The notes under the pieces: model-generated
Databases searched by the model: none
What the model saw: only the letters and a program-made list of their open reading frames with translations
What the model was told of the DNA's origin: nothing
Source of the DNA: Stegostoma tigrinum
Lineage: Eukaryota
Direction: 5' to 3'
DNA: 64,000 nucleotides
Assembly: GCF_030684315.1 (NCBI RefSeq)
Contig: NC_081382.1
Coordinates: forward strand, 9,611,267 to 9,675,266
Position numbers and translations under genes: made by a program
Shown: positions 624 to 57,759 of the stretch, in pieces
How the letters are laid out: every line of letters begins with the position of its first letter
How positions within the stretch are numbered: the first letter of the stretch is position 1

Positions 624-1339
624 GTTCTGAGACAAAAACCAATTTAAAATTATCAATGGAGCTTACAGTGTGATTCATTTATGCATGTTGGAAGCCACAT
701 ATAATTACACACAGGACACATGCTCTGTCAAGACAAGAGGTATTTGAGGATGCATTTTTTTTCATTGAGAAAAGGATTATGGGGACTGCAACACTCTGCT
801 GCATTTCCCTGTCCAGACCAATTATGATCTATGGTTCTGGTCTGAATTTGAACAGCTAACCAAAAGTGATAATTAAGGATTTCTACTATATCTCCATGCC
901 AACCATGATTCAACCAACCAGGACCCTTTTCTCAAGCTGTGTATGTTGGTATCTCCTTTCTACATTTGGTTTCTTGCACTTCAGTCCTGATGAATACTAA
1001 ATGCGGAACTTTGATTTTATATTTCTGTTTAATAATGTTTGAGTTGTAAAAAAGTTATCCAGGAATTCTGACTGGCATTTGGCTGTTGACTGACAACACC
1101 GTACAACAAATTATATGATCATTGAACTTATGGCTGGCTGTGTTTTGTTAATGTACACAAACCAATGATCTGTTATCGATTGGCAGCTCTGACAGTACCA
1201 CACTTCAAATAGTACTTAAGTGATGGTAAAGGGCTTTGAAACAGCACATGATTCTGAAATCTTTTCTGTACACAAAAGTTGTTTAGTATTGAATTGATAT
1301 TCATAGTGAAATGTGTAAGCTGAAGATCCTTTCTAATTA

Positions 1340-1555
1340 GCGAGTTTTGAGAAGATTTGTAGCTCAGGTTGAGGTTCTGGATGTGAGTTTGTTCGCTGAG
1401 CTGGAAGGTTAGTTTTCAGACGTTTCGTCACCATTCTAGGTAACATCATCAGTGAGCCTCCGATGAAGCTCAGTCTATTTTACAGTGCTAGAAGCTAGAA
1501 TGGTGACGAAACGTCTGAAAACTAACCTTCCAGCTCAGCGAGCAAACTCACATCC
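1340..1555. mobile_element. Palindromic mini-insertion made of Penelope-like element termini
   Basis: Inverted arms 1379-1439 and 1495-1555 (60/61 match). Flanking direct repeat ATCCTTTCTAATTA at 1326-1339 and 1556-1569. Confidence 0.88.
1416..1455 (-). ncRNA. Minimal type I hammerhead ribozyme motif (PLE-associated)
   Basis: Minus strand reads UCA-CUGAUGA-U-GUUACC-UAGAAU-GGUGAC-GAA-ACGU-C-UGA: intact core, 6-bp stem II, palindromic ACGU stem III, 3-bp stem I. Confidence 0.8.
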
Positions 1556-1689
1556 ATCCTTTCTAATTATTAAACCAATTTGTTTCCCAATAGCCACATC
1601 ATAGTACAGAGCTCAAATCTTGCTGAGAGAAGAGATGCACTTAATCAGTCCATGCTTGCAAACAAGAAAAAAGACAAAATAATTTCTGT

Positions 1690-1860
1690 TAGATATGATT
1701 CTGTGATTGGGCAGCACTTCCTGAGTATGCAAATAACTTGGCTTCCTGAGTGTGCACTAATGTCCAATTTAGGAAAATCCTTAAAAATGGCTCATTTGTA
1801 CTTACTGGAAGCAAGACATTCTCATATGCGGAGACCTACTGTCTTAAAACGAAAGGATGT
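1690..1860 (+). mobile_element. Degraded PLE GIY-YIG C-terminal fragment
   Basis: Translation DSVIGQHFL...PECA...AHLYLLEARH...PTVLKRK resembles the PLE endonuclease C-terminus (SAIGQHL...LLEA..I...P.L..QK). Confidence 0.55.
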
Positions 1861-1865
1861 GACGT

Positions 1866-2030
1866 GTCACAAAAACAGAAATTGCTGGAAAAGCTCAGCA
1901 GGTCTGGCAGCATCTGCAGAGAGAAATCAGAGTTAACAATTCAGGCCCAATGACTCTTCATCAGTTCTGAACTTTTCCAGCAACTTCTGTTTTTGTTTCT
2001 GATTTCTCTCATCATAAGTTACTTCATTTT
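1866..2030. mobile_element. Palindromic PLE-terminus fragment (second family) with decayed hammerhead
   Basis: Arms 1869-1898 and 1967-1996 are reverse complements. The minus strand at 1932-1967 has CTGATGA-A-GAGTCATTGGGCCT-GAA. The same terminus recurs at about 8920-9020. Confidence 0.7.
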
Positions 2031-2778: not shown

Positions 2779-2780
2779 AG

Positions 2781-3417
2781 AGATAACAAGATGTAGAGCT
2801 AGATGAACACAGCAGGCCAAGCAACATCAGAGGAGCAGGAAAGCTGATGTTTCATTTCTGGACTCTTCTTCAGAAATGGGGGAGGGGAAGGGGATTCTGA
2901 AATAGATAAAGGGAGGGGAGAGACAATGATGGAAGACGGATAAAGGAATAGATGTGTGGAGAGGAGACAGACAGGTCAAGGAGGTGGGGATGGAGCCAGT
3001 CAAGGGAGGGTGGACAGGTCAAGGAGGCGGGAACGAGCTGAGCTGATTTTGGGGTGAGGTTGGGGGTGGGGCCATTTTGAAGCTTGCAAAGTCCACATTG
3101 TGAAGTCCATGTGGATATCACAAGCTTCAAGATCTCCCCACCTCCGAACTCATCCCAAAACTAGCCCAACTCATCCCCGTCTCCCCAACCTGTCCATCTC
3201 CTCTCTGCCTATCTGCTCCCCTATCCATCTTCCATCTGCCTCCCCCTCTGTCTCTATTTATTTTGGAATCCCCTTGCCCTCCTCCATTTCTGAAGAAGGG
3301 TACAGACCTGAAACATCAGCCTTCCTGCTCCTCTGATGCTGCTTGGCCTGCTGTGTTCATCCAGCTCCACACCTTGTTATCTCAGATTCTCCAGCATCGG
3401 CAGTTCCTACTATCTCT
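2781..3417. mobile_element. Two PLE 3' ends joined head-to-head (about 630 bp imperfect palindrome)
   Basis: 2781-3100 is in minus orientation and 3108-3417 in plus orientation of the terminus seen at 41283. Decayed hammerhead CTGAAGA-A-GGGT-ACAG-ACCT-GAA-ACAT-C at 3290-3319. Confidence 0.85.
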
Positions 3418-3419
3418 GG

Positions 3420-6400
3420 CAGATACATGTGACTTTGTTTTAGCCATTAATGAGATGCAGAGAGATCATTTGGGTAGTGGGATTAAGATGTAACCAGGCA
3501 AAACTGCCAGCTGAAGCCAACTGGATTTTAAATAGGCACTATAACTGGCTTAATCAATGGATAATGAGGCAAATGGAACTTATGAGTGTAGGGTATTCTG
3601 ATCGAAGCGGACATCCTCGCCAGTGCACTCAAGCTTAGGGAACACCACGTGAGTGAAGACAATTGCATAGCCTCACTCAGGACATATCCTGAACAGAGGG
3701 ACTATGGGTCAGCCCACAGCAAAACCCCAAACAAAGCTAAGTCTCTGCCAAACAGTTAAAATTTTCTTCAGGAACCAGGCCAGCAAGCCGCTGTGGTTGC
3801 TGCCCATATGCAGACTCCAGGCAGCAAAAGGGTCTTACTAAACCCGAACTGAGTAAAAGAATTCATAGGCTGGTATCCAGGAAAGTGCACACCCTGGGTA
3901 GTGCACCTATTTGGAACAGTGAAATCACTTTCCAACATCCAAGTCAGAACAAAACAAAATAAATGTCCAGTTAAACAACCAACAGTCCTACTGGAAGCTG
4001 ATACCAGTGCAAACATATCAGTGATTGCAGAAGCAGCCTTCAATAAGATTCACTCTGGACTCCGACCCTTAAGTTTGTGCAAGACCTTAGCTGTACTGAG
4101 AACATGTACCAGGGAACCTTTACAGATAAAAGTACAACTTTGGTTCCGGCCCCATATGAGAAGTACTTGGTTCAGTTACCACTGACTATAGTCAAAGGCT
4201 TGAGCTCCATCAAGCCATGATGGGGAAACATTGGTTGAGAAAGATTTACCTGGATTCAGTCAACATTTCTCAATTGGAAAATGGCTGCCTGAGTGAAGTC
4301 CAAATTGAATACCCAAACGTTTTTCAGGAAAGCCTAGGGGCATCAAAGCAGCCAAGGCCATCTTGCATGTTGACCAAGAAACAATTCCATGATTCTGAAA
4401 GGCCTGCCTAGTGCCATTTGCTCTAGGGGCAAAAGTAGAGGGAGAAATCAGAAGGCTGGAAAGCAAAAGAGCCAGCAAACCAGTCCAGTTTGTGGAATGA
4501 GCAGCACTGATCGTACCAATTGTGAAACCCGAGGGGTCGGTTCACTTAGGTTGTGGTTTTAAACAAATGGTAAACAGCTTTCCACAGCTGGATAAATACC
4601 CAATCCCTCACAAAGATGATTTATATGCAAAGCTGGCAGTGGAGCTGTCCTTCACGAAACTGGACACGAACCATGCAAACTTCCAATTATGGTTAGACGA
4701 CGATTCCCAGAAGTATGCTACAACTAATATCCACAAGGGTTTGTACCAATATATGAGACTGCCATTTGGAGTGTGCGAGTGCAATAAAAAGAAGATGGAG
4801 AACATTTGACAAGACATACTCCAGGTCAACATTTATCCAGATGATGTGTTAATAACAGGGAAGAAAAACAAGGATCATTTAGCGGTCTTGGACATAGTCC
4901 TTTGAGTTTTCTCCCAAATGGAAGTCCGCCTCTGAGGTGAAAAATGTGTGACCCAAGCACCATGGGTCTACTTGCACTACAGCATTGACAAGACCAGGTT
5001 ACACATGTTGGAAGATAAAGTGAGGGTGAGCAAACTTGCCCTGGCTCCCACATTTGTATTGGAGCTTAGATCTTTCCTTGGGCTGGTGAATTCTTACAGA
5101 AAGTTCATACATAACCTGGCCTCCATCCTGGCACCCTTCCATCAACTCTTGAAAAAAGATCAGCCTTGGAAGTGGTCACGTAGCTAAGACATAGCTTTCA
5201 GGAAAGTGAAGAAACAGCTATCATCCTCTAGGGTATTGGCACACTATGATGACAAGTGAGATCTGGTATTGACACGCGATGCCTCCTCATATGATATCGT
5301 GGTAGTATTAGCTCATGGGTGGTTCAATGGAGAGGATCGTTCAATAGGGACTATGGTTAATGCAGAGTGCTCCGAGATAGAGAAGGAAGGCTTGGCAGAC
5401 ATGTTTGGAGTTAGGATTTTCCACCAACACCTTTATGGATGTAGATTTGTAATAATAACAGACAACAAACCCTGCTAGGTTAACATAAATACAAACAGGA
5501 ATTTCTTCCAAGACACCCTGGGTGCAAGAGATAAATACAAATATGCCCGTAGCTTCAGGCTAAATTCAGCGGTGGGCTCTAATATTATCCGGGAGGCCAA
5601 GTAGCAAATGCAGATGCATTGAGCTGCCTCCCGCTGGTAGATACACCCCGAGTGGCAACGCCACTGGAAGAGACTGTAATGGTTTTAAATTTTCTGGACA
5701 CACTTCCAGTCACAGCCGACAAAATAGCGGAAGCAGAAAGATCCGGTCCTGGCAAAACTGAAACGGCTGGTGGCAATGGGGGAGACTGAGGGTACTTCAC
5801 AACCAGAACTGAAACCTGCAGCTGGAGTGACAAGATCACCGCAGAGGATGGCATATTATTATGGGGAGCAAGAGTGATTGTCCTGTGCAAAGGCCACTGA
5901 TAGTTACTGGCTTAACTCTACCACGGTCATTCAAAAGTTTCCAAAATGAAGATGCTAGCAAAGTGTTATGTCTAGTAGCCACTATTGGATGCAGACATAG
6001 ATGCATTGGTGGGGCAGGTCACAGAGTGCCAACAAGGATAGACATTACCAGCAGTGTCTACCCCCATTGGTGGAAAGGCTGGGAAAGCCTGGATTTAGTT
6101 ACATGTCAGCTATACAGATCCTTTCATGGGTTCAATGTTCTTAGTCATGACAGACATCCTCTCCAAGTGGCTGAATGCGCATAGAGTTCATTAGTCAAAC
6201 ATGGGGGCAGCAATAGAAAAGCTGCGCATATCTTATGCGACACACGGATTCCTGGAAGTCCACGACTCCAGCTCCATAGCATCGATCATCCAGTGGCCTG
6301 GCAGAAGGGGCAGTCCAAACTCTGAAGGCAGGAATAAAGAAATAACCTACAGCTTCACAAAATGCCAAACTGTCCCGGTTCCTATTTGCGACTGTTTTGG

Positions 6401-6898
6401 AACCTATGGGTTCTCTCTCTCTGTCAATTCGAATATACCTTGGAACTTGGGATGGACGCAGCAGACTTTGCCAACTCAATGCCTTTGCCACCTGTAGAAG
6501 AGAAGGAGTTTCTTCCAAGACACCCTGGGTGCAAGAGATAAGCTACTGTGTGTTACATGTCGCCAGTATCACAGGTAGACCAGGACAAACCTTATCCTGC
6601 ACTAAAACAACCTAGGAACAGCAACAAAAAAAAAGAACAAGCCTATATGCTTGGACTCAATGGGGGAGGGATGTAGTGATTATAACGAGGTCAGCCAGGT
6701 AGACCTCATAGAATATAAGATCCCTGAGTGGGGATATTAATCTGGTCCAATCAAGGAGCCCTGGCTGACAGATAAGAAGAAGAGTGTCAGACATATTCGC
6801 ACTCTGACAGCTGGCTCTGAGGGAGCTGGAGCAATGTCAAGGGCTCTCCACATGTATATAAAGGGTAACTTGGTGACCAGATATTTTGGTGTTTTCTC
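3420..6898 (+). mobile_element. Decayed Ty3/Gypsy LTR retrotransposon (gag-pol remnant, PPT, 3' LTR); 5' LTR not seen
   Basis: Protease-like LEADTSANISVI. RT motifs DKYPIP..DDLYAKL, FTKLD, TNIHKGLYQYMRLPFGV and YPDD. ELRSFLGLVN. RNase H motifs DASSY, EIEKEGLA and ITDNKP. Integrase remnant downstream. Many stops and frameshifts. Confidence 0.9.
6662..6898 (+). repeat. Polypurine tract (6662-6671) and 3' LTR of the Gypsy element
   Basis: GGGGGAGGGA is immediately followed by TGTAGTG at 6672. A related LTR piece lies at about 12575-12670. The right boundary is approximate. Confidence 0.75.
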
Positions 6899-6972
6899 AA
6901 AACCTAGTGGAAAACTCTTATTTAAAACCTGATATAGATAAGGTATTTAATTGGTCACCTTTATAACTCTAC

Positions 6973-7182
6973 AAAAATAATGCAGTGTGGAGCTGGAGGA
7001 ACACAGCAGACCAGGCAGCATCAGAGGAGCAGGAAAGCTGATGTTTCGGTTCAGGACTCTTCTTCAGAAATGAAGAGGGAGGGCCACGACTGGAAACGTC
7101 AGCTTTCCTGCTCCTCTGATGCTGCTTGGCCTGCAGCATTCCTCTGGCTCCACACTGTGTCATCTCTGACTCTTACAATCTC
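6973..7182. mobile_element. Palindromic PLE-terminus mini-insertion
   Basis: CAGTGTGGAGCTGGAGGAA...GGAAAGCTGATGTTTC is mirrored by GAAACGTCAGCTTTCC...GGCTCCACACTG. Direct repeat TAACTCTAC at 6964-6972 and 7183-7191. Confidence 0.85.
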
Positions 7183-8369
7183 TAACTCTACCCAAATGTG
7201 TTACGGTGTTTAGCCATGAGTCATAATGTTGTGAAACTAGAGCAATGATGCACTTCCCCAGTCTCAGTCGTGTCACTATCCATTTAATACATTCTTAGAC
7301 AGGACACAGAAATCTCTCACTAACATACCTGCAGATGATCATTGTTGTATTTATATCAGCTCATCTGATTTTAATCATCTAACACAAAACACATGTAGAA
7401 ATTAATATTCAGTAATGATGATCCAGGATAATCTTTGGAGTATCTGTATCAGGAAACACAATATAGCAATATCTAAATTGAGAATTTTCAGGAAATAGAA
7501 GTATAACAAAGAAACATAAAAGAAAAAATATCAGAACAATTATCAATGCTATGAATCTTCTTGCTAACTGGCCTCCACCTATCTTGGACAATATGCTGGT
7601 TGATAAACAACCTTTCTTGAATCTTTCAAGTGAGATTATTTGAAGAGTATCTCAATTCAATGCCGTAATGGGTCATATATCAGAATAGGATTGTGGATCT
7701 CTTTGATTCTGAGATGGTGCCAGATAGTAAATTTTCATTTAAACCCCATTGTCTTCGTGCTTCCAGTCCAAGGTTATGTTATCAATATTTGTCTTCCACT
7801 CTTACTTTCAATTTGTTTGGAGTTTAAGGACAGATTGTTTGTCCAAACAACCTCTTCAATCAAAGCATTGCATTCTCTTGCCTTTTCAATGTGGAGCTAA
7901 GTACTTTGCAGCAGGGAATCACCCGCTACACAAAAAAATTCCACTCCATTTTGTGAGCTGTTTTCTCTGAATTCACATATTTCTCTCCCTCCTTATAAAT
8001 TGACCAAGTCTGAATTACCCAGAAGGCCCCTGTGTGGGAAATAAATTCACTTTAATGGATAGGGGCTCAATCAAGTCTGCTATGCTTCTGCTCAGAGAAG
8101 TGTAATTTGTACTGAGCCATCTGTTGTATATTTTATACATCTCAGCACATTGAGAGTTGACATTAGTTTCAAAGTGTGGTACACAAGAGTTTTGAAATAT
8201 CTTTATGATCACAAAATGTTTATACTCAAAGCTCTACAACACCAAAGCAGTCAAGCTGCAGCTTGGATTTTTCCATTAAGGCAAAAGAGCAGAACCTCGT
8301 GGCTCTTAAACTGCCAGCACATTGCAATAACAGATAGAAGTAATGCCAGGACTATTAATTAAACAGTTA

Positions 8370-9520
8370 TAGATTGGGGATTGTTAATGTACAATTTAGA
8401 CCTAAGTATCCTTATACCAGTTACATAAAGCAAGCATGCAGGTGCAACAAACCCTTTGGTAGTTCTGTCCACTAAAATGAACTTCCAGTTGCCAGCTACT
8501 TCAATACACCTCTGTGTTCCTGAGCTAAGATCTCTGTCTCAGCCTTCTGCAGCGCTCCAATGAAGCTCAGTACAATTCGGAAGAACAGCACTCATGTTCC
8601 TCTTGGGAACACTGCTGCCTTCTGGGCTCAATTTCAAGCTCAACAATTTTAGGCCTTGAGGCACCTTGTCCCATGTCCTTACCCCAACCCACATGCACCA
8701 GGCCTTGACATTACTCGGGCTGCCACCATAAACACCCATTGTCAGTGACTAATGATCCATAGTAACAGTTATTCTTTGCCCCAGGCTAACCTTTACCCAT
8801 TCCTTTGTCTGTCCAACTGTTTTTCTCTGCCTTTGGGCCCTATCTCCACCTATCAAGTACCCACACTGCCTCTCCGCCTCCTCATTTTCTGCATAAATAC
8901 CAACAATTTCCTAGCCACCATCAGGAAGAAGGTGTCACTGGACCCCAAACATTAATTCTATTTTCTCTCCCCAGCTGCTGCCAGAGCTGCTGAGTTTCTC
9001 CAAAAATTTCTGTTTTTGTTTGTAGGCAAATGGTATGTTGGCTTTCATTGCAAAAGAGTTTTGATTGTAAGTGCAAGAAAAGCTAGCTTGAGTCATAAAG
9101 GCCTTAACAAGGCCATTCTTACTGTGTAGTGTGCAGTTCAAGTCTCCTTGCCTAAGAAAGGATATGCTTGCAGCAAACAATCTGCTGTAATTTTTTTACC
9201 AGACTGATTCCTGGCTAGGCAACATTGTCATCTGAGTTGGCATTTAGCTCCCTAATAAAGGACTAGAGCAATGGGTCAGTCTCAAAACGTAAGGTAGGCC
9301 TATTTCGGATTTCTTCACTGAGGAAGACTACCAAAGAATCCTGTGAAGATCAATTCAGTGAATATATTTCAGAAAAAAATCAGGATTCGTGACACAAAAG
9401 ACAACAAAGTGTTATTGGGAAAAGGTATGGCATTGAGATAAAAGATCAGCCATGATCATATTGAATGGCGCAAAAGCTTTGAAGGGTGAATGGCTTACAC
9501 TTGCTCCTATTTTTGAAGTT
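8370..9520 (+). mobile_element. Old CR1 3' fragment interrupted by a PLE 3' fragment (about 8455-9020)
   Basis: CR1-like AAGCAAGCATGCAGGTGCAACAA resumes as GGCAAATGGTATGTTGGCTTTCATTGC after an insert encoding ELPVASYFN (GIY-YIG C-terminus) and a PLE terminus. Confidence 0.65.
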
Positions 9521-12670: not shown

Positions 12671-12699
12671 AAAATATGTTTAGCCATTCGCAACAGAGT

Positions 12700-19381: not shown

Positions 19382-22322
19382 TTGAACAATGAACAATACA
19401 GCACAGCACCAGGCCCTTTGGGCCCTCCAAGCCTGCAAGCTACATTCTGCTATAACAGTCTTCACTTACAGGATCCATACCCCTCTATCCTCACTAGTCC
19501 CTTCCTATTCATGTATTTGTCCGGATGTTTTTTAAATGCTGCTATCGTGTCTGCTTCCACCACCTCCCCTGGCAATGCGTTCCAGGCACTCACCACGCTT
19601 TGAGTGAAAAACCTGCTTCGCACACCTCTTTTAAACATCCCCCCTCCCCACACTTCAACCCATGTCCCCCTAGTAATTGACCCCTCCACCCTGGGAAAAA
19701 GCCTCACACTTTCTATTCTATTCATGTCATTCATAATCTTATAAACTTCTGTCAGGTCACTCGTCAACCTCCTCAGTTCAAGTGAAAACAAACCCAGTCT
19801 ATCCAACCTTTCTTCATAGCTAAAATCCCCAATACCAAGCAACATCCTGGTAAACCTTTTCTGTTCCCTCTCCAAAGCATCCACATCCTTCTGGTAGTGT
19901 GGTGATGAGCACTGTATGCCATATTCCAAGAGTGTCCTGGCTAAAGTTCTATATAGCTGCAGCACAACTTGCCTATCCTTATTTTCAATGCCCCTTCCAA
20001 TCAAAGTAAGTGTGCCATAGGCCTCCTGCACTAGCTTATCTGTCTACTCCTCCATTTTCAGTGACCTGTGGACCTGCACACCAGATCTCTCTGCATATCA
20101 GTACTCTTAATGAATCTGCCTTCAATGAATAATTTCCACCTGTACTTGGCCTTTTAAGATGCGTTACCTCACAGCAGGCCAAGCAGCATCTTAGGAGAAC
20201 AAAAACTGACATTTCGGGCATAGAAACATCAGCCTTTGTGCTCCTAAGATGCTGCTAGGCCTGCTGTGTTCATCCAGCTCTACACTTTGTTACCTCTGAC
20301 TCTCCAGCATCTGCAGCTCCCATTATCTCTGCATTACCTCACATTTGTCCGGATTAAACTCCATCTGCCATTTTCCTGCCCATGCCTCTAACTGATCTAT
20401 CCAGCTATATCCTCTGACAATCCTCCTCAGTGTCTGCAACTTCACCAATCTTTGTATCATTCACAAACATACCACATTTTCCTCCAAATCATTTATGTAG
20501 ACTGTGAGCAGCAGAGGTCCAGCGCTAATCCCTATGGTACACCACTGGTCACAACCTTCCATTCTGAAAAAAACATCCTTCCATTGCTACTCTCTGTCCC
20601 CTGTGACTAAGCCAGCTGACCCCTGATACCATGTAACATCACCCTTTATACCAGTCTGCCATGGGGTACCATGTCAAAGGCTTTATTGATGCCCATGTAG
20701 GGAACATCAACTGCTTTTCCATCATCAATCACCTTTGTCACCTCCACAAAAAAAACTCCATCAAGTGAGTGAGGCATGACCTCCCTTGCACAAAATCATG
20801 CTATTGCTAATGAGTCCATTTTTTCTAAATGCTTCCAGATGGTGCCCCTGAGAATGTTTTCCAATAATTTCCCGACCACTGATGTGAGGTTCACAGGCTT
20901 GTAATTTCCTGGATTATCCTTGCTGCCCTTCTTAAACAAGGGGACAACATTGGCTAGTCTCCTGTTCTCTGGGGCCTCATCTGTGGCCGAAGACGATATA
21001 AAGATACCTGTCCATGCTCCAGAAATTTATTCTCTTGCCCTTCTCAATATTTCAGGGTAGATCCCATTAGGACCCAGTGACTCATCTACCTTAGTACTTT
21101 TTAAGATTCACAACATTTCTTCCTTTTTAATAGCAATTTAGAAATTTGTCACTCCTTCCCTGAGATTATCCTCCACCAATTCCTTCTGTTTGGTGAATGT
21201 TGACATAAAGTATTCATTTAGGACCTCGCCCATCTCTTCTGGCTCCATGGATAGATTGCACCCTTTATCCTTGAGTGGGCCAAACCTTTCTGTGGCTATG
21301 TTCTTTTTTTATATATATATATAAAAAGCTTTGGGATTGTCCTTTATCTTGTTTGCTAACCATTTTTCATGGCCTCTTTTAGCCCTTCTAGTTCCTTGTT
21401 TTTTCCGACTTTCTTACTTCAATGACTTTGTCAATTCCATGCTCCTAGACCTAATTTATGTTTCCTTTTTCTTTTTGACCAAGGTCATAACATCCCAGTC
21501 TTCTAACGTTCACATAACTTGCCCATATCTATCCATCATTCTCACAGGAACATGGTGCTGCTGATCTTATATCAACTGCCATTTGAAATACTTCCACACA
21601 TTTGATGTGGATTTACCCTCGAACAGTTGCCTCCAATTAATATTCTATAGTTCTTGCTTGATATTGTTGTCATTCACCTTGCCCCAATTTAACACCTGCA
21701 CCTGAGGACCCCTATTACCCCTATCCATGTGTACCTTATATCTCATGGTATCATGATCACTACCCCTGAAATGCTCCCCATTGATACTTCAGCCAATTGA
21801 CTGGGTTCATCTACCAAAGTTATGTCCAGTATAACCAGTTCCCTGTTTGGACTGTCAAGAAACCCTTCTGAATGGTCCTTACAAATTCTGCCCCATTCAA
21901 GACCCTATCGTGTCGTGAGTCCCAGTCAATATAAGGGAAGTTAAAATCACCCACCGCAACAAGCCTGCTGCTTTTATTATATCTTCCCAAAATCTGCCTA
22001 CATATCCTCTCTTCTGTCTCCCATTGGCTGTTGGGAGGCCTATAGTATACTCCCAGCATTATACTTACCCCAAATTGCCTCAGTGCATGAGTCCTCTGAA
22101 TGATCCTCCCTCAGTTCAGCTGTGAGATAGTCCTTTATGTGTGATACAACTCCCCTACCCCTTTTCTAACCTTTCCTATCATACCTGTAACATCCAAATC
22201 CTGGGACAATCCTATCCCTCTTCCAACCAAGCCTCTGTATTTGTAATAATGTCATAGTTCTAAGTGCTAACCAAAGCTCTCCGTTCGTTTACCTTGTCTA
22301 TTACACTTCTCACATTGAGATG
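19382..22322 (-). mobile_element. CR1 LINE, nearly complete but decayed ORF2 (APE endonuclease to 3' tail)
   Basis: ORF 21820..22059 has GVYYRPPNS and VGDFNFPYIDW (endonuclease). ORF 19462..20031 is the CR1 C-terminus. Tail near 19382. Confidence 0.92.
20174..20329. mobile_element. Palindromic PLE-terminus mini-insertion nested in CR1
   Basis: GCAGGCCAAGCAGCATCTTAGGAG...CTCCTAAGATGCTGCTAGGCCTGC. Direct repeat TGC(G/A)TTACCTCACA at 20160-20173 and 20330-20343. Confidence 0.88.
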
Positions 22323-22329
22323 TAGTCAG

Positions 22330-35845: not shown

Positions 35846-38235
35846 CATAGAACATAGAACATTACAGCACAGTACAGGCCCTTCAGCCCTCGATGTTGTG
35901 CCGACCTGTCATACCAATCTCAAGCCCATCTAACCTACACTATTCCATGTTCGTCCATATGCTTATCCAATGACGACTTAAATGTACCTAAAGTTGGCGA
36001 ATCTACTACCGTTGCAGGCAAAGCGTTCCATACCCTTACTACTCTCTGAGTAAAGAAACTACCTCTGACATCTGTCCTATATCTTTCACCCCTCAATTTA
36101 AAGCTATGCCCCCTCGTGCTCGCCGTCACCATCCTAGGAAAAAGGCTCTCCCTATCCACCCTATCTAACCCTCTGATTATTTTATATGTATCAATTAAGT
36201 CGCCTCTCAACCTTCTTCTCTCTAATGAAAACAGCCTCAAGTCCCTCAGCCTTTCCTCATAAGACCTTCCCTCCATACCAGGCAACATCCTAGTAAATCT
36301 CCTCTGCACCCTTTCCAAAGCTTCCACATCCTGCTTACAATGCAGTGACCAGAACTGTATGCAATACTCCAAGTGCGGCCGCACCAGAGTTTTGTACAGC
36401 TTCAACATAACCTCTTGGTTCTGGAACTTGATCCCTCTATTAATAAAAGCTAAAACACTGTATGCCTTCTTAATAGCCCTGTCAACGTGGGTGGCAACTT
36501 TCAAGGATCTGTGTACATGGACACCAAGATCTCTCTGCTCATCTACACTACCAAGAATCTTACCATTAGCCCTGTACTTTGCCTTCTGGTTACTCCTACC
36601 AAAGTGCATCACCTCACACTTGTCTGCATTAAACTCCATTTGCCACCTCTCAGCCCAGCTCTGCAGCTTATCTATGTCTCTCTGCAACCTACAGCATCCT
36701 TCGTCACTATCCACAACTCCACCGACCTTAGTGTCGTCTGCAAATTTACTAACCCATCCTTCTACGCACTCATCCAGGTCATTTATAAAAATGACAAACA
36801 GCAGTGGACCCAACACTGACCCTTGTGGCACACCACTAGTAACTGGTCCCCAGGATGAACATTTCCCATCAACTACCACCCTCTGTCTTCTTTCAGCAAG
36901 CCAATTTTCGATCCAAACTGCCATATCTCCCACAATTCCATTCCTCCGCATTTTGTACAATAGCCTATTGTGGGGAACCTTATTGAACGCCTTGCTGAAA
37001 TCCACATCAACCGGTTTACTCTCATATACCTGTTTGGTCACCTTCTCAAAGAACTCAATAAGGTTTGTGAGGCACGACCTTCCCTTTACAAAACCGTGTT
37101 GACTATCCCTAATCAATTTATTCTTTTCTAGATGATTATAAATCCTATCCCTTATAACCTTTTCCAACACTTTACCAACAACTGAGGTAAGGCTCACTGG
37201 TCTATTATTACCAGGGTTGTCTCTACTCCCCTTCTTGAACAGGGGAACCACGTTTGCTATCCTCCAGTCATCTGGCACTATTCCTGTAGACAATGACGAG
37301 TTAAGTGGCAAAGGCTCGGCAATCTCCTCCCTGATTTCCCAGAGGATCGGAGGATAAATCCCATCCGGCCCAGAGGACTTATCTATCTTCACCCTCTGAA
37401 GGATTTCTAATACCTCTTCCTTGTGAGCCTCAATCCCACCTAGTCTAGTAGCCTGTATCTCAGTATTCACCTCGACAACATTGTCATTTTCTAGAGTGAA
37501 TACTGTTGAAAAATATTCATTTAGTGCTTCCCCTATCTCATCTGACTCCACACACAACTTACTACTACTATCCTTGATTGGGCCTAATCTTACTTTTGTC
37601 ATTCTTTTATTCCTTAAATACCTATAGAACGCCTTAGGGTTTACCCTGATCCTGTCCACCAACAACTTCTCATGTCTCCTCCTGGGTCTTCTGAGTTCTC
37701 TCTTTAGGTCTTTCCTGGCTACCTCGTAGCCCTCAAGTGCCCTAACTGAGCCTTCATATCTCATCCTAACATAAGCCTTCTTCTTTCTCTTGACTAGAGC
37801 TTCCACCTCCTTCATAAACCACGGCTCCCGCACTCTACAACTTCCTCGCTGCCCGACAGGTACATCCTTATCTCGGACATACAGGAGCTTTTCCTTGATT
37901 AAGCTCCACATTTCTAATGTGCCCATCCACTGCAGTTTCCTTCCCCATCCTATGCTCCCTAAATCTTGCCTAATCTCATCGTAATTGCCTTTCCCCCAGC
38001 TATAACTCTTGCCCAGTGGTATACATCTATCCCTTTCCATCACTAAAGTAAACATAACAGAACTGTGATCGCTATCACCAAAGTGCTCACCTACTTCCAA
38101 ATCTAACACCTGGCCAGGTTCATTGCCCAGTACCAAATCTAATGTGGCTTTGCCCCTTGTTGGCCTGTCTACATACTGTGTCAGGAAGCCCTACTCCACC
38201 CACTGGACAAAAACTGACCCATCTATAGTACTCGA
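35846..38235 (-). mobile_element. Young CR1 LINE, 5'-truncated in the endonuclease domain; 733-aa ORF2 remnant
   Basis: ORF 35935..38136 has HFGDSDH, KSSGPDGI, WRIANVVPLFKKG, QHGFVKGRSCLTNL, GVPQGSVLGP and FADD. CATAGAACATAGAAC tail at 35846. Confidence 0.97.
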
Positions 38236-38491: not shown

Positions 38492-38675
38492 GTCATGATG
38501 TGGAGGTCCTGGTGTTGGTCTGGGGTAGACAAAGTCAGAAGTCACATGACACCAGGTTATAGTCCAACAAGTTTCTTTGAAATTACAAGCTTTAGGAGTG
38601 ACTTCACCTGACGAAGGAGCAGCGCTTAGACAGCTTGCGATTTTAAACAAACCTGTTGGATTATAACTTAGTGAT
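38492..38675. mobile_element. Palindromic PLE-terminus fragment (third family) with decayed hammerhead
   Basis: GTTATAGTCCAACAAGTTT...ACAAGCT is mirrored by AGCTTGCG...AAACCTGTTGGATTATAAC. Motif CAC-CTGACGA-A-GGAGC-AGC-GCTTA-GAC-AGCT-T-GCG at 38605-38639. Confidence 0.7.
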
Positions 38676-38676
38676 C

Positions 38677-39100
38677 AGAGATAACGGGAACTGCAGATGC
38701 CGGAGGATCTGAGATGACAAAGTGTGGAGCTGGATGAACACAGCAGGCCTAGCAGCATCTCAGGAGCATAAAAGCTGACGTTTCGGGCCTAGACCCTTCA
38801 TCAGAGAGGGGGATGGGGAGAGGGAACTGGAATAAATAGGGAGAGAGGGGGAGGCGGACCGAAGATGGATAGAGGAGAAGATAGGTGGAGAGGTGAGTAT
38901 GGGTGGGGAGGTAGGGAGGGGATAGGTCAGTCCAGGGAGGACGGACAGGTCAAGGGGGCGGGATGAGGTTGGTAGGTAGGAAGTGGAGGTGCGGCTTGAG
39001 GCGGGAGGAGGGGATAGGTGAGAGGAAGAAGAGACGACAAGAGAGTTGCAGTGGGAGAGAGATCCCCTAAGATTGGTCCGGAGGGAGGAGGGGACAAGAC
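38677..39100 (-). mobile_element. PLE 3' end (same family as 41283)
   Basis: Near-identical to 41283-41560, including the terminus and the purine-rich tract. Confidence 0.9.
38775..38806 (-). ncRNA. Minimal hammerhead ribozyme motif
   Basis: CU-CUGAUGA-A-GGGU-CUAG-GCCC-GAA-ACGU-C-AG. Stem I is only 2 bp. Confidence 0.65.
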
Positions 39101-39569
39101 ATTTGACTTCACTTCTGTGAGGGGGAAGGGAGTATTGACCATGGGACATTCACTTTCCCTGATCCCTGCCTGCCAGTCAGCCCATGCAGTAAAAGTTGAT
39201 GGTCGATCCTTTTTTCGTTCCACCCTTTTCAACAGACCAGAAAATGTTAATGGAGATAGGACAAGGCCTTTAAAAAAAGCTGTCCACTTGGGGGCTTCCA
39301 AAGCTCTGAAGGTTGGAGATGGGGTCATTTTCTGTCTGGCACTTTCCCGAGAAGCTTCCTTTAGGTTGATTTGCCTAATAGGCAATGCTTATGTTCGTCC
39401 TGTCATGCAGGATCTAGGTGTAGCATTAAAAATTCCAATAAATTTTTTTTGCAGCTATTATATACAAACATTCAATTTCTCAGGTACGTAAATCTCTTGG
39501 GTTAACGTTAAGTTGTGAGGTTACATGGTGAAACACGGTTCTGGTAGAATGTCACATCTCAAGTGGTAT

Positions 39570-40745: not shown

Positions 40746-41282
40746 TCACTTTCCTGATTGCATCTCAATGGTATGTGTTGTGCTTAGGCAATGAAAGATT
40801 CTGCATTCTATCCTTATATGGCTAACAACTTTATTTTTAACTCATTATGTTAAAGTTATGAACTAATGCTTACATTATTCAGGAGCACCATACCAGTTCT
40901 AGCTGAAGGCTCTGGACATCTGTTTAATGAAGCTTCCTGTATATGTTGGGGAAATGGCAAATGAATTAAACAGTTCTGCAGCAGTTTAACTCTGAACATT
41001 GAACGTCAAATTGTACGATATTTCAACCATTTGTATAATTGGCTGACCAAACTGCTAATCACATTTTAATTAAAAACTTTCATTGGACCACGCAGTTCTT
41101 AATATCTCAGAATACATTTTTAAAAATAAAAGTTACATTAATTTTAAAAATGATTCCAAACATTGCGGATCATTGATTAAAAGCATTCTTGCGTAGTGCA
41201 CCCTCCCTGCTGCCTTGCTGAGTAATTCTGCAGATCATGTTGCATTCTGTTGTAATTCAGATGCCAAACCTACTCTTTTGCT

Positions 41283-43038
41283 AGATAATAAAATGTGAGG
41301 CTGGATGAACACAGCAGGCCAAGCAGCATCTCAGGAGCACAAAAGCTGACGTTTCGGGCCTAGACCCTTCATCAGAGAGGGGGATGGGGAGAGGGAACTG
41401 GAATAAATAGGGAGAGAGGGGGAGGCGGACCGAAGATGGAGAGTAAAGAAGATAGGTGGAGAGAGTATAGGTGGGGAGGTAGGGAGGGGATAGGTCAGTC
41501 CAGGGAAGACGGACAGGTCAAGGAGGTGGGATGAGGTTAGTAGGTAGATGGGGGTGCAGCTTAGGGTGGGAGGAAGGGATGGGTGAGAGGAAGAACAGGT
41601 TAGGGAGGCAGAGACAGGTTGGACTGGTTTTGGGATGCAGTGGGTGGAGGGGAAGAGATGGGCTGGTTGTGTGGTGCAGTGGTGGGGGGGAGAGGATGAA
41701 CTGGGCTGATTTAGGGATGCAGTTGGGGAAGGGGAGATATTGAAACTGGTGAAGTCCACATTGATACCATATGGCTGCAGGGTTCCCAGGCGGAATATGA
41801 GTTGCTGTTCCTGCAACCTTCGGGTGGCATCATTGTGGCAGTGCAGGAGGCCCATGATGGACATGTCATCTAAAGAATGGGAGGGGGAGTGGAAATGGTT
41901 TGCGACTGGGAGGTGCAGTTGTTTGTTGCGAACTGAGCGGAGGTGTTCTGCAAAGAGGTCTCCAAGCTTCCGCTTGGTTTCCCCAATGTAGAGGAAGCCA
42001 CACCAGGTACAGTGGATGCAGTATACCACATTGGCAGATGTACAGGTGAACGTCTGCTTAATGTGGAATGTCATCTTGGGGCCTGGGATAGGGGTGAGGG
42101 AGGAGGTGTGGGGGCAAGTGTAGCATTTCCTGCGGTTGCAGGGGAAGGTGCCGGGTGTGGTGGGGTTGGAGGACAGTGTGGAGCGAACAAGGGAGTCACG
42201 GAGAGAGTGGTCTCTCCGGAAAGCAGACAGGGGTGGGGATGGAAAAATGTCTTGGGTGGTGGGGTCAGATTGTAAATGGCGTTAGTGTCGGAGGATGATG
42301 TGTTGTATCCGGAGGTTGGTAGGGTGGTGTGTGAGAACGAGGGGGATCCTCTTAGGGCGGTTGTGGCGCGGGCGGTGTGTGAGGGATGTGTTGCGGGAAA
42401 TACGGGAGACGCGGTCAAGGGCGTTCTCGATCACTGTGGGGGAAAGTTGCGGTCCTTGAAGAACTTGGACATCTGGGATGTGCGGGAGTGGAATGTCTTA
42501 TCGTGGGAGCAGATGCGGTGGAGGCGGAGGAATTGGGAATAGGGGATGGAATTTTTGCAGGAGGGTGGGTGGGAGGAGGTGTATTCTAGGTAGCTGTGGG
42601 AGTCGGTGGGCCTGAAATGGACATCAGTTACAAGCTGGTTGCCTGAGATGGAGACTGAGAGGTCCAGGAAGGTGAGGGATGTGCTGGAGATGGCCCAGGT
42701 GAACTGAAGGTTGGGGTGGAAGGTGTTGGTGAAGTGGATGAACTGTTCGAGCTCCTCTGGGGAGCAAGAGGCGGCGCCGATACAGTCATCAATGTACCGG
42801 AGGAAGAGGTGGGGTTTGGGGCCTGTGTAGGTGCGGAAGAGGGACTGTTCCACGTAACCTACAAAGAGGCAGGCATAGCTGGGGCCCATGCGGGTGCCCA
42901 TGGCCACCCACTTAGTCTGTAGGAAGTGGGAGGAGTCAAAAGAGAAGTTGTTGAGTGTGAGGACGAGTTCAGCTAGGCGGATGAGAGTGTCGGTGGAGGG
43001 GGACTGGTCGGGCCTGCGGGACAGGAAGAAGCGGAGGG
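41283..43038 (-). mobile_element. Penelope-like retroelement, 5'-truncated (RT C-terminal half plus GIY-YIG endonuclease), young but disrupted
   Basis: RT: MAMGTRMGPSYACLF, RYIDD, FLD, RPTDSHSYL. GIY-YIG: NVVYCIHCTWCGFLYIGETKR..FAEH..PVANHF..EQQLIFRLGT..GIN. TSD CCTACTCTTTTGCT at 41269-41282 and 43039-43052. Confidence 0.96.
41346..41377 (-). ncRNA. Minimal hammerhead ribozyme motif in the PLE terminus
   Basis: CU-CUGAUGA-A-GGGU-CUAG-GCCC-GAA-ACGU-C-AG on the PLE sense strand. Confidence 0.65.
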
Positions 43039-44205
43039 CCTACTCTTTTGCTGTTCCTTTTCTCAAACTGTTCAGCGACATGCTTCACTTCAACATTCCT
43101 CCATGGTGTTACTTTTCATTTTGATTGCCTCTAAAGCTGTATTTATTTTTCTATTGCCCCTTCCTCTTTCTGTTACCGTCCCCTCCTCTTAAATTAACCC
43201 TTTCTACTGCACTGTTCATCATGCTGCTTAAGGCTTCTGCAATGCTAGATAATCAATCTTAAAGACAGCTTTAAAGACGCTCAATATAATTCAAGGACCA
43301 TTTAACATCTGAAATGAACATCGTCTCCTCATGCAACATCCTTCTAAGGAAGTAACGCATAATTACAGTGTGTAAAACAAAGGCAATGTATTAATCGTGG
43401 TGGACTTCATATAGGCTGCTCAAAACAAATCACTGAAGACAGTCAGGAGGATGAATTTGCAGAACCAGAAATGGTAAAATTACTTTAGATCTTGATCTGT
43501 GAAATGAGGCAGGTTTAACCACTATCCTCATCGCATATACTCTTGGGAAAATGTTGTCACAGTAAAATTGAACTCCATATTAAATTTAAAACACAAGACT
43601 AAGAAAATTAAATGTCCAGGTTGGCTTTGTTGGTGAAATGAATACATTGTGGTGATGCAGAATTGGGGGGTTTATTCAATGCTGGGGAAAAGGAGCAGAA
43701 AACTGGTTGAGGAGGCATCAGGAATTGTGATGGAGCGAAGCTCAAGATATAAAGGAGGGAGTTGGCAGTAAATGAGAGGGCATGGGAAATGATGGAACTG
43801 GGGATGTTATCAATCATCACCACCACTTTGACCTACATGGGGTGGGGTGGGGGAGTCAGTGGGGGTACAATGAAGCATAATGGTAGATTTTACCAAACTA
43901 CAGTGCCAGGGCATATGGGCAAGGAGAAATGTTGGGGTATTCTTTAATGTGGTGGGTGATGACATATTGAGGTTTAAGGGAGATAGACTGTCCAGAGGCA
44001 GGAAATGGAACAGGACGTAGAGGCTCTGGGGAGGTACATGCTGACCAGGCCAAGCCCCATTCTGAGGCTGTTCCATGTCATGACTTTCCAATTGCTTGAA
44101 GTGACCTGCAACTGGAAAAATACCCAAGGTGGACAAAATCAGTTTCAGCTTGATGGGCAAAAGCACAGGCTTCACTTCTGCTTGATAGAACTGCATTGAA
44201 GTTTG

Positions 44206-44530: not shown

Positions 44531-44531
44531 T

Positions 44532-48689: not shown

Positions 48690-48830
48690 TCGTCTCCAAT
48701 GAAGGGTCTGGGCCCGAAACGTCAGCTTTTGTGCTCCTGAGATGCTGCTTGGCCTGCTGTGTTCATTCAGCTCCACACTTTGTTATCTTGAATTCTCCAG
48801 AATCTGCTGTTCCTATTATCTCTGATCTCG
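48690..48830 (+). mobile_element. Short PLE terminus insertion (hammerhead core mutated)
   Basis: CCAATGAAGGGTCTGGGCCCGAAACGTCAGCTTTTGTGCTCC... Imperfect flanking repeat AATCC(T/G)ACCA. Confidence 0.8.
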
Positions 48831-52159: not shown

Positions 52160-52256
52160 AGGCCACAAGGTGTGGAGCTGGATGAACACAACAGACCAAG
52201 TGGCATCAGAGGAGCAGGAAGGCTGACATTTCGGGCCTAGACTCTTCTTCAGAAAC
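52160..52256 (-). mobile_element. Short PLE terminus fragment with decayed hammerhead
   Basis: Minus strand: CTGAAGA-A-GAGT-CTAG-GCCC-GAA-ATGT-C-AG, followed by the common terminus. Confidence 0.8.
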
Positions 52257-53900: not shown

Positions 53901-55527
53901 ACAGCTTATTGTCATGAGTATTTTTGCAAAAACAGTGAGAAGTTTAATATGTCACCATACCAAAGCACCTAAAATAATGACAGAAGTCATAAATTAGAAA
54001 GGAAAAAAAGTTAGTGAAAATTCATCACAATCCAAATAATACCTCCTATGTTCAGGGCATGCTGGAAAACCAGGCCGAAGCCACCACGTAAGGCTGGGCC
54101 GTGACCTTCCAACCTGCCACACCTAGATAAGACCTCCATGTTGAGATGGAGCTGGAAATTTGGAAGATCCCGGAATTTTCCTCTGAAGCAAGGATGAGAC
54201 TTCCACGCCAAGGCGAGACTTCCGCGCTTGGACTAGATTTTCCCAGTGGTCTGCCGGAATGTCCGGATGCTGCCGAAGAAGAACTCCACAATGGGTGTGG
54301 GCCTGCACCCCAGGACCAGAATGTCACCCCGCAGGTGGGGACAACCCCTCCAGGACAAAGCTGCCACACCGGGAGATCACCCTACACGGTGCCAGGCCTT
54401 TAACATCATTCCAAGTTTTGGAAACTACCTTGTTATTGGGCCTCAGCCAGGAGAAGACAACTTCCACAGAAGCTATTAAAAGAGGGCAAGGTACCATAAT
54501 AAATAGAAGCATTTAAAAAAGCATAGAAAGAAAAAAAAACTGTAAAGCAAGCAAAGTTAATGAGGTCTGGACTATTGTGCTGTATTAAAGGCGAAATATG
54601 AAAAGAAAAGCTGTTATGATTATTGGCATTTTTTCTTGCTCTAAGCACACCAGACTTTATGAGAGAGGAATCGGTCCGATTGATTGGCGTGAAAGGCTGT
54701 TTCACTCTCTTATGATCCCGGAAATACTGACACGTCAGAATGAAATCTGGCTGACAGATTTTTTTTCATTTTAGTTAACCTGGTGGTCACTTACTGAAAC
54801 ATAGTCACTTGAGGCTGCAAAGTTTTTCTTAATTTAAAAAAAAGGTATATTGTACAAAAAATGATTACAAAAATAATTGAACCATTGTGATATGTAACAC
54901 AGTTTGAAAAGCCTTAAAATACCCACAAAATGAAAGCCTTAACCTGATATCCAACACCATCATTTTACAGTAATTCAAATCTAGAGAAATTATGCATGGA
55001 AATCAAATATTTAAGTTTGACTTAACTGACTTTCTGCAGTTTTGTTTTTCCCCTGTGAACTTTGGTGTCTTCTTACATAAGCGCTCATAAAACTGAGAGT
55101 TTAAACTTTCTCAGTTTCTAATCATCTATAGCTTTCTTACCAAGCACTCACAATCAGGATATTGCAGGAACTGAACATTTCTACTGTTATAATATTTTTC
55201 CTGAACTGTCCTCAAAAAAGATCTTTCTCTACTTGTTCCTGATCCTGAGTCTCCTCAAATATGCCTTTTTAAAAAGTTTTTAATCTCTCAGTTTCCAGAG
55301 TTAAAATCAGTTCTTGATGATCCCAAACCAAAAACATTTGACTACTCTGAACCAAAAACAAACTAGTGGTCTTCAATATTTACTCTACCTGTAATGAACG
55401 ACCAAAAGTATAAGTAATTTTCCATTAACACTCCAGTAGTTCCAGCTTCCTGAACAAAAATAATAGGTTAGGTCTCTGTTCTTGAGGCACTATCTCATCT
55501 CAAAAGAAAGTCGTCAAAAAATCCCCT

Positions 55528-55852
55528 TTATTCATTAATGGGATGAGGACATCGCTGGGTAGGCAGCATTTATTGCCTATCCCTAATTAGAGGGCAATTA
55601 AGAGTCAAACACATTGCTGAAGGACTGGGGTCACTTGTAGGTCAGTATCTTTCCCAAAAGGACAGGAGTGAACCAATTGGGCTTTTTCCTGATAATTGAC
55701 TCATGGCAATCGTTAGATTCTTAATTCCAGATATTTATTGAACTCAAATTGCACCATCTACCATGGCAGGATTTGAACCCAGGTCCCCAGAACATTAGCT
55801 GGGTCTCTGATTTAACAGTCCAGTGATAATACCACCAGGCCATCACATCCCC
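55528..55852 (-). mobile_element. tRNA-derived SINE with LINE-derived tail (near full length)
   Basis: Head TGGCCTGGTGGTATTATC...GGGTTCAAATCC on the minus strand. Tail GGCAATAAATGCTGCC...CCCATTAATGAATAAA. Confidence 0.85.
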
Positions 55853-55974
55853 CTCATCAACAAGTAATCAACAAGCATTATGCCACTATTTTAAAATCCA
55901 AACTCACAACTTGATATTTATGTATTCTAAATCAAACACCTTCCATCATAGCTCACAAGCAGTGAATTTAGTGC

Positions 55975-56209
55975 TTTACGTTTTGAGCAAAATGTCTGTC
56001 AGGCTGTGGGTGAGGTTGTTGATTTGCTCACCAAGCTGGCTTGTTCTCATTCAAGCGTTCATCATCAAGATAGGTAACATCATCAGTGAGGCCTCCGATG
56101 AAGTAATGTTGTTCTACTCCACCTGGAGGCTTCGCTGGTGGTGTTACCTAGCACAGTGATGAAATGTTTGAACAAAAACAAGCCAGCATGGCAAGCAAGT
56201 CAACAACCT
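55975..56209. mobile_element. Palindromic PLE-terminus mini-insertion (relative of the 1340 family, older)
   Basis: GAGGTTGTTGATTTGCT..GCTGGCTTGTT...TAGGTAACATCATCAGTGAGGCCTCC is mirrored by GGAGGCTTCGCTGGTGGTGTTACCTA...AACAAGCCAGC..GCAAGTCAACAACCTC. TSD CAGTGAATTTAGTGC at 55960-55974 and 56210-56224. Confidence 0.88.
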
Positions 56210-57759
56210 CAGTGAATTTAGTGCACTTGCAATGCATAGGGAAGATGTAGAAAACATTGATTAGGTCTGTAGACAGACTAGCTCCTTAGATTTCAACTTG
56301 TACTACCAGTTTGACTTAAATGTCAGACAACTCCCTTTCTCAGTTTGAATGATGCTTGGGATGTATTCAATTTAAAAATGCCAGCTCTTGTTTTCAATCC
56401 TTCATTTTCATGGGCCTTTAAATTTTTACTTGCTCAAATCAGGCTCAGGCTAAGAGCAATGATTATTCAAAAAATATTGGAGAGTGGGGTGTTCTAAGTG
56501 ACGATTTGGGCTCTGGGTTTTTCATCATCAAAATTCTTCCAGGCGTTTGTCGATGCTATTTGACACTCCAATCCCTTCTTTCCCCTCATCACACCAATAG
56601 CCATCCATCCAACCCTTAGCTGCTGTAAAACTATCATTACACTAATTGGCAGAATTCAAACCCCAGGTTTCTGACTACAACCTTAACAACTTCATATATT
56701 ACTCCGACCTGCCAGATAGATAATCTCCCTGAGCGACTTCTTCTCTTCCACTGTCAACAGTCACTCTTTTGACCCTTCCTTTTCCTCTCCCTCTCGTTAT
56801 TCTCTCTACCAGGACAGAAAATTCACTTTTTGAACTGGAAATTTGTCGGTTTATTTTTCCTGAAAATGAGGTCTGTTGGAGAAGTTATTCCCTTGTATCA
56901 TTTAACTTCAGTGAATCAGCTTACCTGATAGCCATTGCACTGGGAAAAAAGTAAGGAAACAGACATTATTTCTTTTCTGTGATATTCAAGGATAGACTTG
57001 CTCAGTGATGAGTATGTTCCAATTCCTAGACCCTTGAATTATTTATAAATTTAAAAATTTCATAAATATATATTCAGTAACAACTGGGCATCCATTATCA
57101 AAGCTAGAGAGTAAACTGTAATGGGAATGAATGGAGTGGGGCCCTTTCCTTCATCCATGGTATTATCAAATTGTAATGATTTAAAATGGGAATAATTAAT
57201 AATTTCCACGTGCTCTGTTTATTCAATTCCTTCCCTTAGACTGTAGCTAGCAGGGTTAAAAATCCCACTGATCTCATTCTTGTTGCTCTCCACGTTCAAT
57301 CTGTCAATTTCCACCTAAGCTTGTTTTTAATGCTCACTAATTCTCACATGACCTTTTTCTGCTTCACGGTCTCCATAGCTTTACGACTCTCTGGGGTGAC
57401 GTTGCTCTTATCGCGCAGGCTAGGCTTTAATTGGGAGTTAAATCTTCTTCCCGTTTTCTTTAGTGGCCCATTTCCCTTTACAACTAGGTAGGCCAGCTGG
57501 TGCAAACAAAGGCATCTCCCCAGGGTATTGCATCTCCGAATCAACTCGCTGTACAAGCTGTGATAAAATACGCACACTCCCACCTTGTATATGCTGGTTA
57601 ACAAGCCTGTCCCGATCAACCCAATAACAGTTAACTAGCACACAGGGGGAAGCAAGGGAGCAGTGTCTTAAAGATGCTGTGGGCTGCAAAGCATCAGGAA
57701 TTGGGCAGGCAGTTGAAAGTAGGAGGAATACTAGGTAAACAGCCAGCAATGTCTGACAC

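Follow-up and report, generated by a model that had tools for sequence, protein, structure and literature searches.

Investigating 64,000 nucleotides (nt) of the Stegostoma tigrinum genome (contig NC_081382.1, forward-strand positions 9,611,267 to 9,675,266; this whole stretch is called the window here), we observed eight short palindromes, each built of two head-to-head copies of the end of a Penelope-like element (PLE), and in all eight an outer tail of 34-38 nt is found on one arm only. We consider it rather probable that these fold-backs arise in one event each, in which reverse transcription is primed at both target nicks by a PLE protein and head-to-head 5'-truncated ends result.

Eight fold-backs of four terminus families

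All eight palindromes listed in an earlier, sequence-only reading of the window were recovered by exact-seed and BLAST searches, at the same positions or a few bases off. In a BLAST comparison of the window with itself at sensitive settings they scored 49.7-356 bits, while the top scores in three shuffled windows, which served as background, were 29.7-36.8 bits. Above this background no ninth fold-back was detected in the window, with the exception of an inverted pair about 1 kb apart (60605-61925), which was set aside as two copies of what we take to be a sequence like a short interspersed nuclear element. The arms of the eight elements are 70-98% complementary, and together the fold-backs cover 3.1% of the window. 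Exact repeats abut both ends in five of the eight, in agreement with the target-site duplications (TSDs) of 9-15 bp claimed before for five elements; an exact repeat of at least 9 bp occurred in only 0.13% of 1,500 random end pairs. Likewise, at least four terminus families had been proposed, and profile and BLAST comparison within the window recovered families A to D, of which A and C are distant relatives. In the following list, signed positions are counted from the predicted ribozyme cut, with the family A copy at 38675-39097 as reference.

1340-1555, family B; TSDs at 1326-1339 and 1556-1569 (14 bp, exact); arms 98% complementary; left arm (minus strand) with tail 1340-1377 and a complete hammerhead-like motif at 1419-1452, right arm (plus strand) 1495-1555 without tail
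1869-2030, family C (start formerly read as 1866, by which it is named below); no TSD found; left arm (minus strand) without tail and extending to about -32, right arm (plus strand) beginning at about +37, with a tail of about 34 nt
2781-3418, family A, subtype 2; no TSD found; arms of about 320 bp, the left without tail (+65) and the right tailed (+101), both stopping in the last endonuclease codons, 2 nt apart, with 8 nt of arm-derived filler between them
6973-7182, family A, subtype 2; 6964-7191 with TSDs (9 bp, exact); left arm without tail, tail of the right arm partial; at the centre, some 9 nt (7075-7083) align to both arms
20174-20330, family A, subtype 1b; 20160-20343 with TSDs (10 bp exact, 14 bp if one mismatch is allowed); left arm ending early (+38), right arm tailed (+101)
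29721-29879, family A, subtype 1b; 29712-29888 with TSDs (9 bp, exact); left arm +3 to +65, right arm +8 to +101, loop of 4 nt, without ribozyme core
38492-39118, family D; no TSD found; left arm (minus strand) 38492-38598 with a tail of 37 nt, right arm (plus strand) 38602-38673, where a family A insertion interrupts it
55975-56209, family B; 55960-56224 with TSDs (15 bp, exact); left arm tailed (36 nt), right arm without tail, central loop of about 9 nt

The right arm of the family D element probably resumes beyond the insertion, at 39100-39118, judging from a match to the family D arm that 0.6% of random 50-nt windows equal in score. The sequence-only reading described the fold-backs as built from termini only and as having a different centre each. 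The latter agrees with our alignments, since all eight centres are distinct in the window, including the four of family A; the former fits the seven short elements and fails for 2781, the arms of which reach into the end of the endonuclease reading frame.

The tail and the anatomy of the arms

Family A copies end at either +65 or +101, which defines a tail of 36 nt. The corresponding tails measure 36-38 nt in family B, about 34 nt in family C and 37 nt in family D, the last value depending on the right arm resuming at 39100-39118. If the two arms of a fold-back acquired or lacked the tail independently and with equal chance, one tail in each of the eight elements would be expected with a probability of 0.004, and of 0.016 for the six cleanest; among the single-arm copies of family A three are tailed and three are tail-less. 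Both arms belong to the same family in all eight elements (chance 5e-5 by the family frequencies in the window) and to the same subtype in all four of family A.

The arms also differ at their inner ends. Given as tailed/tail-less arm, the 5' reach is about +37/-32 in 1866, -26/-44 in 6973, -8/-17 in 20174, +8/+3 in 29721 and -12/-35 in 38492, and, approximately, -50/-21 in 1340 and -63/-52 in 55975. In six of the eight, each arm includes sequence that the other lacks, and as it is the tail-less arm which reaches further 5' in six of the eight, neither of the two can have been copied wholly from the other. At the centre, the arms overlap by 1 nt (29721), 2 nt (20174), about 3 nt (55975) or about 9 nt (6973). 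Centres located at the ribozyme cut itself were considered and rejected: only 29721 (+3/+8) and the single-arm copy at 62089 (+2) come that close, and the remaining centres lie between -63 and +37, with that of 2781 at about -255.

PLE identity of the termini

That the arms are PLE termini, as the sequence-only reading had it, is borne out most directly by family A, whose terminus is contiguous with a body of 1.76 kb (41283-43039) encoding parts of a reverse transcriptase (RT) and a GIY-YIG endonuclease. The RT fragment has 640 homologues, many with RVT_1 and some also with GIY-YIG, and its closest named relatives are from carpet sharks, with 97%, 89% and 79% identity. The frame at 41740-42281 is 45% identical (E 3e-51) to the GIY-YIG C-terminus of P0105 (Pfam GIY-YIG). 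No Pfam family was found at 1e-3 with the PLE fragments of the window themselves, and a comparison with PDB gave 0 matches. The translation of 41740-42281 carries a CX4CxxC linker at residues 48-56 and a CCHH motif with two cysteines between GIY and YIG. CCHH as a feature of endonuclease-bearing PLEs and the CX2-5CxxC linker of Neptune and Nematis were defined previously (PMC8557442); by these motif definitions, the linker and the cysteine pair point to a Neptune or Nematis type for family A. For the other families the link to such a body is less certain: an endonuclease remnant (E 2e-7) lies upstream of the family D terminus, and that of family C is weak (E about 2e-4).

A minimal hammerhead core with stem II, of the motif type described in PMC4209133, was recognised as a predicted ribozyme in families A, B and C and is degenerate in D. 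Rfam gave no hammerhead match over the window, and only sub-threshold microRNA-type matches over the fold-backs; pattern scans for the family A terminus gave 0 matches in viral, prokaryote-genome and metagenome contigs. PLE-derived arms, TSDs of variable length and centres unique in the window all agree with the earlier suggestion that the fold-backs, in spite of their appearance, are retro-generated and are not miniature inverted-repeat transposable elements (MITEs) of DNA transposons. Arms of a terminal-inverted-repeat (TIR) family with fixed TSD length, which had been named as the contrary case, are not what we see, the TSDs ranging from 9 to 15 bp and the family A arms belonging to an RT-coding element.

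Other terminus copies and the share of fold-backs

Profile searches of the window revealed 18 terminus-bearing insertions, comprising the eight fold-backs and ten other copies, five of which are terminus-only and five of which include more of the body:

41283-43039, minus strand: 5'-truncated family A PLE, 41269-43052 with TSDs (13-14 bp), no inverted arm; RT fragment 42434-43039, then zinc-finger linker and GIY-YIG endonuclease 41740-42281, then the 3' untranslated region (UTR) with a hammerhead-like motif at 41348-41375; tail-less end at 41283
38675-39097, minus strand: family A copy with tail and 3' UTR, lying within the family D fold-back but itself not a fold-back
48693-48827, plus strand: tailed single-arm terminus of family A that begins immediately 5' of the ribozyme core, with a possible TSD of 10 bp (one mismatch)
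52165-52254, minus strand: tail-less single-arm terminus of family A that begins at -29; a TSD was not found
62089-62188, minus strand: single-arm family A terminus, +2 to +101, tailed, 12 bp TSD (62079-62204 with TSD)
59295-60019, minus strand: family A-type copy, diverged, with a remnant of the endonuclease and with neither tail nor inverted arm
8479-9021, plus strand: family C copy with a weak remnant of the endonuclease C-terminus, tail-less, no inverted arm
28312-28375, minus strand: short single-arm family C piece, tailed
57754-59061, both strands: body-scale inversion of family D, no TSD found; terminus and endonuclease C-terminus on the minus strand (endonuclease match 58317-58517), joined near 58500 to a plus-strand RT fragment (58527-59061), the segments being non-overlapping
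59026-59083, plus strand: short single-arm family B piece spanning the tail region, following the family D inversion

With 8 of 18 (44%, Wilson interval 25-66%), the fold-backs are the largest single class and make up about half of the insertions, which is less than the dominant insertion product they had been called. Left out of the 18 were a family C match at 60399-60449 (E 0.004), the inclusion of which gives 8 of 19, and a family B match at 25434 that is at null level (E 0.47). A TSD was found for two of the eight non-fold-back copies tested (12 bp and 13-14 bp).

Some details of these copies may be added. The weak family C remnant at 60399-60449 lies over the hammerhead region. The single-arm copy at 62089-62192 starts 1 nt from the predicted ribozyme cut. 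It is separated from its TSD by 4 nt, which form the reverse complement of the copy's other end and might be the vestige of a second arm.

Contigs of public runs and related loci

Contigs of four public runs were aligned to 38640-39120; one of these runs (X1) may be of the same source as the window. It yielded 179,418 aligned contigs, the loose ends of which pile up at +65 to +67 (898, 875 and 524 contigs), and in 724 contigs the 5' boundary lies at -29, immediately 5' of the hammerhead core. Such pile-ups support an inner start site at a fixed position and a preferred boundary on the 5' side, which is also where the left arm of 1866 and the copies at 48693 and 52165 begin. The runs X5, X6 and X8 yielded 111-145 contigs each and no joints.

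At least 193 joints were obtained, and among the 15 best supported there are head-to-tail repeats of -29 to +65 (15 contigs) and an opposite-strand 3'-to-3' joint of +100 with +68 (38677/38709, 4 contigs). Listed joints of 38805-38808 to 38711-38774 look like such head-to-tail repeats of the terminus (-29 to +65) and, in the case of shorter ones, perhaps of the hammerhead alone (-30 to +7, -32 to +3), which would correspond to retrozyme-like or ribozyme-dimer arrangements. Segment 39036-39095, the far end of the copy at 38675-39097, occurs in the contigs in joints with many 3' UTR positions and is matched by contigs of the other three runs as well.

A search with the RT returned 80 related loci, most of them at about 45-65% identity, 25 having enough flank to show the full layout. 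In 13 of the 80 an inverted repeat encloses the RT match, which is the long form of the layout of the fold-backs. Three of these 13 combine a TSD with a one-sided extension (33, 46-50 and 22 nt), too few and too weak for testing the tail rule. Long PLE-type copies of other organisms are found in L004 (2187-4561), L032 (24-2926), L040 (6112-7738) and L054 (931-4372); in these copies inverted termini flank the RT, and the arms contain hammerhead-like motifs. L040 shows a flanking repeat of 7 bp and a one-sided extension of 33 nt.

Origin of the fold-backs

In vitro, a lizard PLE protein, predicted to act as a dimer, cuts the two strands of the target and extends each of them, and its reverse transcription begins at two closely spaced positions, between which the tail lies (PMC11167929). 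If both nicks prime on RNA, an antisense and a sense arm will result, with their 3' ends outward and enclosed by one TSD, and this is the layout seen. The outer start site would serve one nick and the inner site the second nick, presumably on the same RNA; that the nicks take different sites is suggested by the one-tail rule. Synthesis of both complementary DNAs (cDNAs) would mostly end after no more than about 130 nt, close to the hammerhead's 5' edge (about -30), where many copies begin, and the two cDNA ends would then be joined over an overlap of 0-9 nt, the centre being trimmed by end joining and the product repaired. Fold-backs of this origin would likely be dead-on-arrival scars, not a self-amplifying family. 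Tentatively, and with more doubt than confidence, one may go further and suppose that a PLE dimer on one RNA fires two coupled RTs, one per nick and start site, which run off at a fixed 5' end upstream of the hammerhead. If true, this would account at once for inverted pseudo-long terminal repeats (pseudo-LTRs), for the tail on one side only and for the short fold-backs, and it would mean about 100 retro-made hairpins per Mb in shark genomes, a large unrecognised source of double-stranded RNA.

The main competitor is self-priming, in which one nucleic acid, either the first cDNA or an antisense transcript, folds back close to the hammerhead so that copying yields a hairpin, whose open end the endonuclease then resolves asymmetrically, the tail remaining on one side. 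It has been put forward for rotifer PLEs, to explain palindromes at their inverted junctions (PMC3846280), with the tail attributed to resolution by the endonuclease (PMC8557442), and both the tight loops of 4-9 nt in 29721, 20174, 55975 and 2781 and the fit of the two family B elements to a simple snap-back speak for it. We nevertheless regard it as unlikely, as the tail matches the stretch between the two RT start sites on the sense RNA in vitro (PMC11167929), and in six of the eight the arm with the longest 5' reach is not the tailed one, so that the snap-back of a single first strand is excluded there. A hybrid is possible, in which both nicks prime and one of the cDNAs then snaps back.

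Fold-backs could also be remnants of longer PLE copies with inverted termini that lost their middle by later deletion: such long copies exist, as the 13 of 80 related loci demonstrate, long palindromes are prone to deletion, and the centre of 1866 could reflect one. Seven of the eight centres, however, lie no more than about 65 nt from the ribozyme cut, where single-arm copies begin, and a boundary shared with single-arm copies is not expected from later deletions, so that this course appears quite improbable. We assign still less weight to an amplification of a few fold-back masters by the PLE protein or a DNA transposase. The outline does resemble that of a MITE, and the tandem joint of -29 to +65 in 15 contigs demonstrates that short PLE derivatives can recur, but all eight centres differ, the length of the TSD varies and the arms are PLE termini; the lack of a head-to-head centre among the 15 best supported of at least 193 joints counts weakly against one amplified junction, too. 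Two independent head-to-head insertions, or artefacts of assembly, have almost nothing to commend them except that PLEs do insert into each other, as seen with the family A copy in the arm of family D: in five of eight elements both arms lie within one TSD, the arms are of the same family in all eight, and an assembly fold-back does not give an arm divergence of 2-30%.

Priming at both nicks has to be held against a number of observations that weigh against it. In PMC11167929 the start site did not differ between the strands, and inverted products are not discussed in the main text; moreover, the PLE used in vitro is a Poseidon, whereas family A appears to be of Neptune or Nematis type. No TSD was found at 1866, 2781 and 38492, i.e. 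in three of the eight fold-backs where one was looked for, and the missing head-to-head centre among those 15 joints also counts here. The tail rule is imperfect in 20174, the left arm of which ends at +38, and in 6973 with its partial tail, and in the two family B elements the sequence of the tail-less arm lies wholly within that of the tailed one, as a simple snap-back predicts. The positions of the centres are by-eye readings of alignments of diverged copies. Taken alone, the agreement of subtypes is not significant (p 0.086), and the matching of arm lengths (permutation p 0.014 with 2781, 0.11 without) rests on this one element, for which the end points are homologous positions, the raw offsets of -255 and -209 being due to an indel. 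For family B, finally, no coding body was found in the window, and a search with its 42-residue peptide gave no homologue, so that its hammerhead-like motif, tail and TSDs are the sole grounds for assigning it.

Comparison with known systems

In LINE-1 twin priming, both nicks prime on the RNA, and each insertion receives its own head-to-head junction with a short overlap and one TSD. The fold-backs would work like this, but outside the LINE-1-type family of long interspersed nuclear elements (LINEs); their arms copy the same stretch and so form a hairpin, in contrast to the non-overlapping segments and poly(A) of LINE-1. Non-overlapping segments as in LINE-1 twin-priming inversions are seen in the copy at 57754-59061.

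Inverted pseudo-LTRs at the 5' ends of PLEs, named as established by the sequence-only reading, are indeed described, together with a one-sided tail and a TSD (PMC3846280, PMC8557442). These insertions share with ours the inverted 5'-truncated copy and a tail of 30-40 bp at one end, as well as the enclosing TSD (8-10 bp in their case), the hammerhead in the terminus and an overlap or palindrome at the junction. Here, in contrast, both copies are cut down to roughly the terminus, no open reading frame is left, the TSDs reach 15 bp, and the form accounts for 8 of 18 insertions of the window, in four families. PAc, a Poseidon from the green anole, shares the two start sites bounding the tail, the extension of both strands and the hammerhead upstream (PMC11167929); family B shows an ATG where stem II begins, as in PAc, and family A carries the CX4CxxC linker of Neptune and Nematis, which Poseidon lacks.

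Non-LTR retrozymes, reported from 31 vertebrates including one cartilaginous fish (bioRxiv 10.64898/2026.07.22.740005), are short, non-coding, hammerhead-bearing PLE derivatives as well. They form head-to-tail tandem families, whereas the eight fold-backs are head-to-head with unique centres; in the main text of that preprint the word "inverted" occurs only within the title of a reference. MITEs of TIR DNA transposons (PMC8969392) share the shortness, the absence of coding sequence, the inverted arms and the TSD, and the fold-backs differ from them by arms that are unequal retroelement ends, by a variable TSD and by the absence of a visible homogeneous family. A literature search, which excluded repeat databases, subscription papers and supplements, found no paper on short PLE fold-backs of sharks. 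The fold-backs are likely the shortest form of a described PLE insertion pattern, and the structure itself is not new.

Hairpin RNA and significance

The eight elements, folded as plus-strand RNA, reach -48 to -403 kcal/mol; such strong folding follows from their symmetry and is no evidence of use. A look-up of RNA data sets containing 28000-34000 listed none, an outcome that has no bearing on expression. Hairpin RNA and cruciforms had both been envisaged for the fold-backs. The former is plausible: in transgenic Drosophila, small interfering RNAs match the inverted regions of rearranged Penelope copies (PMC3681739), and if transcribed, fold-backs would feed small-RNA silencing in the same way. 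Cruciforms from arms that diverge by 2-30% appear doubtful on general grounds. Cleavage by the ribozyme would be unlikely, because a fold-back transcript pairs the sense hammerhead with its antisense.

The origin of tandem and inverted PLE structures has been called undefined (PMC8557442), and the main use of the fold-backs may be as a natural data set for this open mechanistic question. Minimal insertions record both the start and the stop points of reverse transcription in one event, and a census could therefore separate twin priming from self-priming; its outcome could be tested in the in vitro PLE system. Repeat pipelines, on the other hand, could mislabel fold-backs as MITEs or as microRNA hairpins.

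Rest of the window

The window is repeat-rich and contains several LINE-type RT fragments. RT/endonuclease fragments of this type, which we take to be CR1-like, lie at 112-678, 19462-20043, 23620-24928, 30802-31968 and 35935-38190, two of them with Pfam RVT_1. The region of about 3600-6600 looks by eye like a decayed pol region of an LTR retrotransposon.

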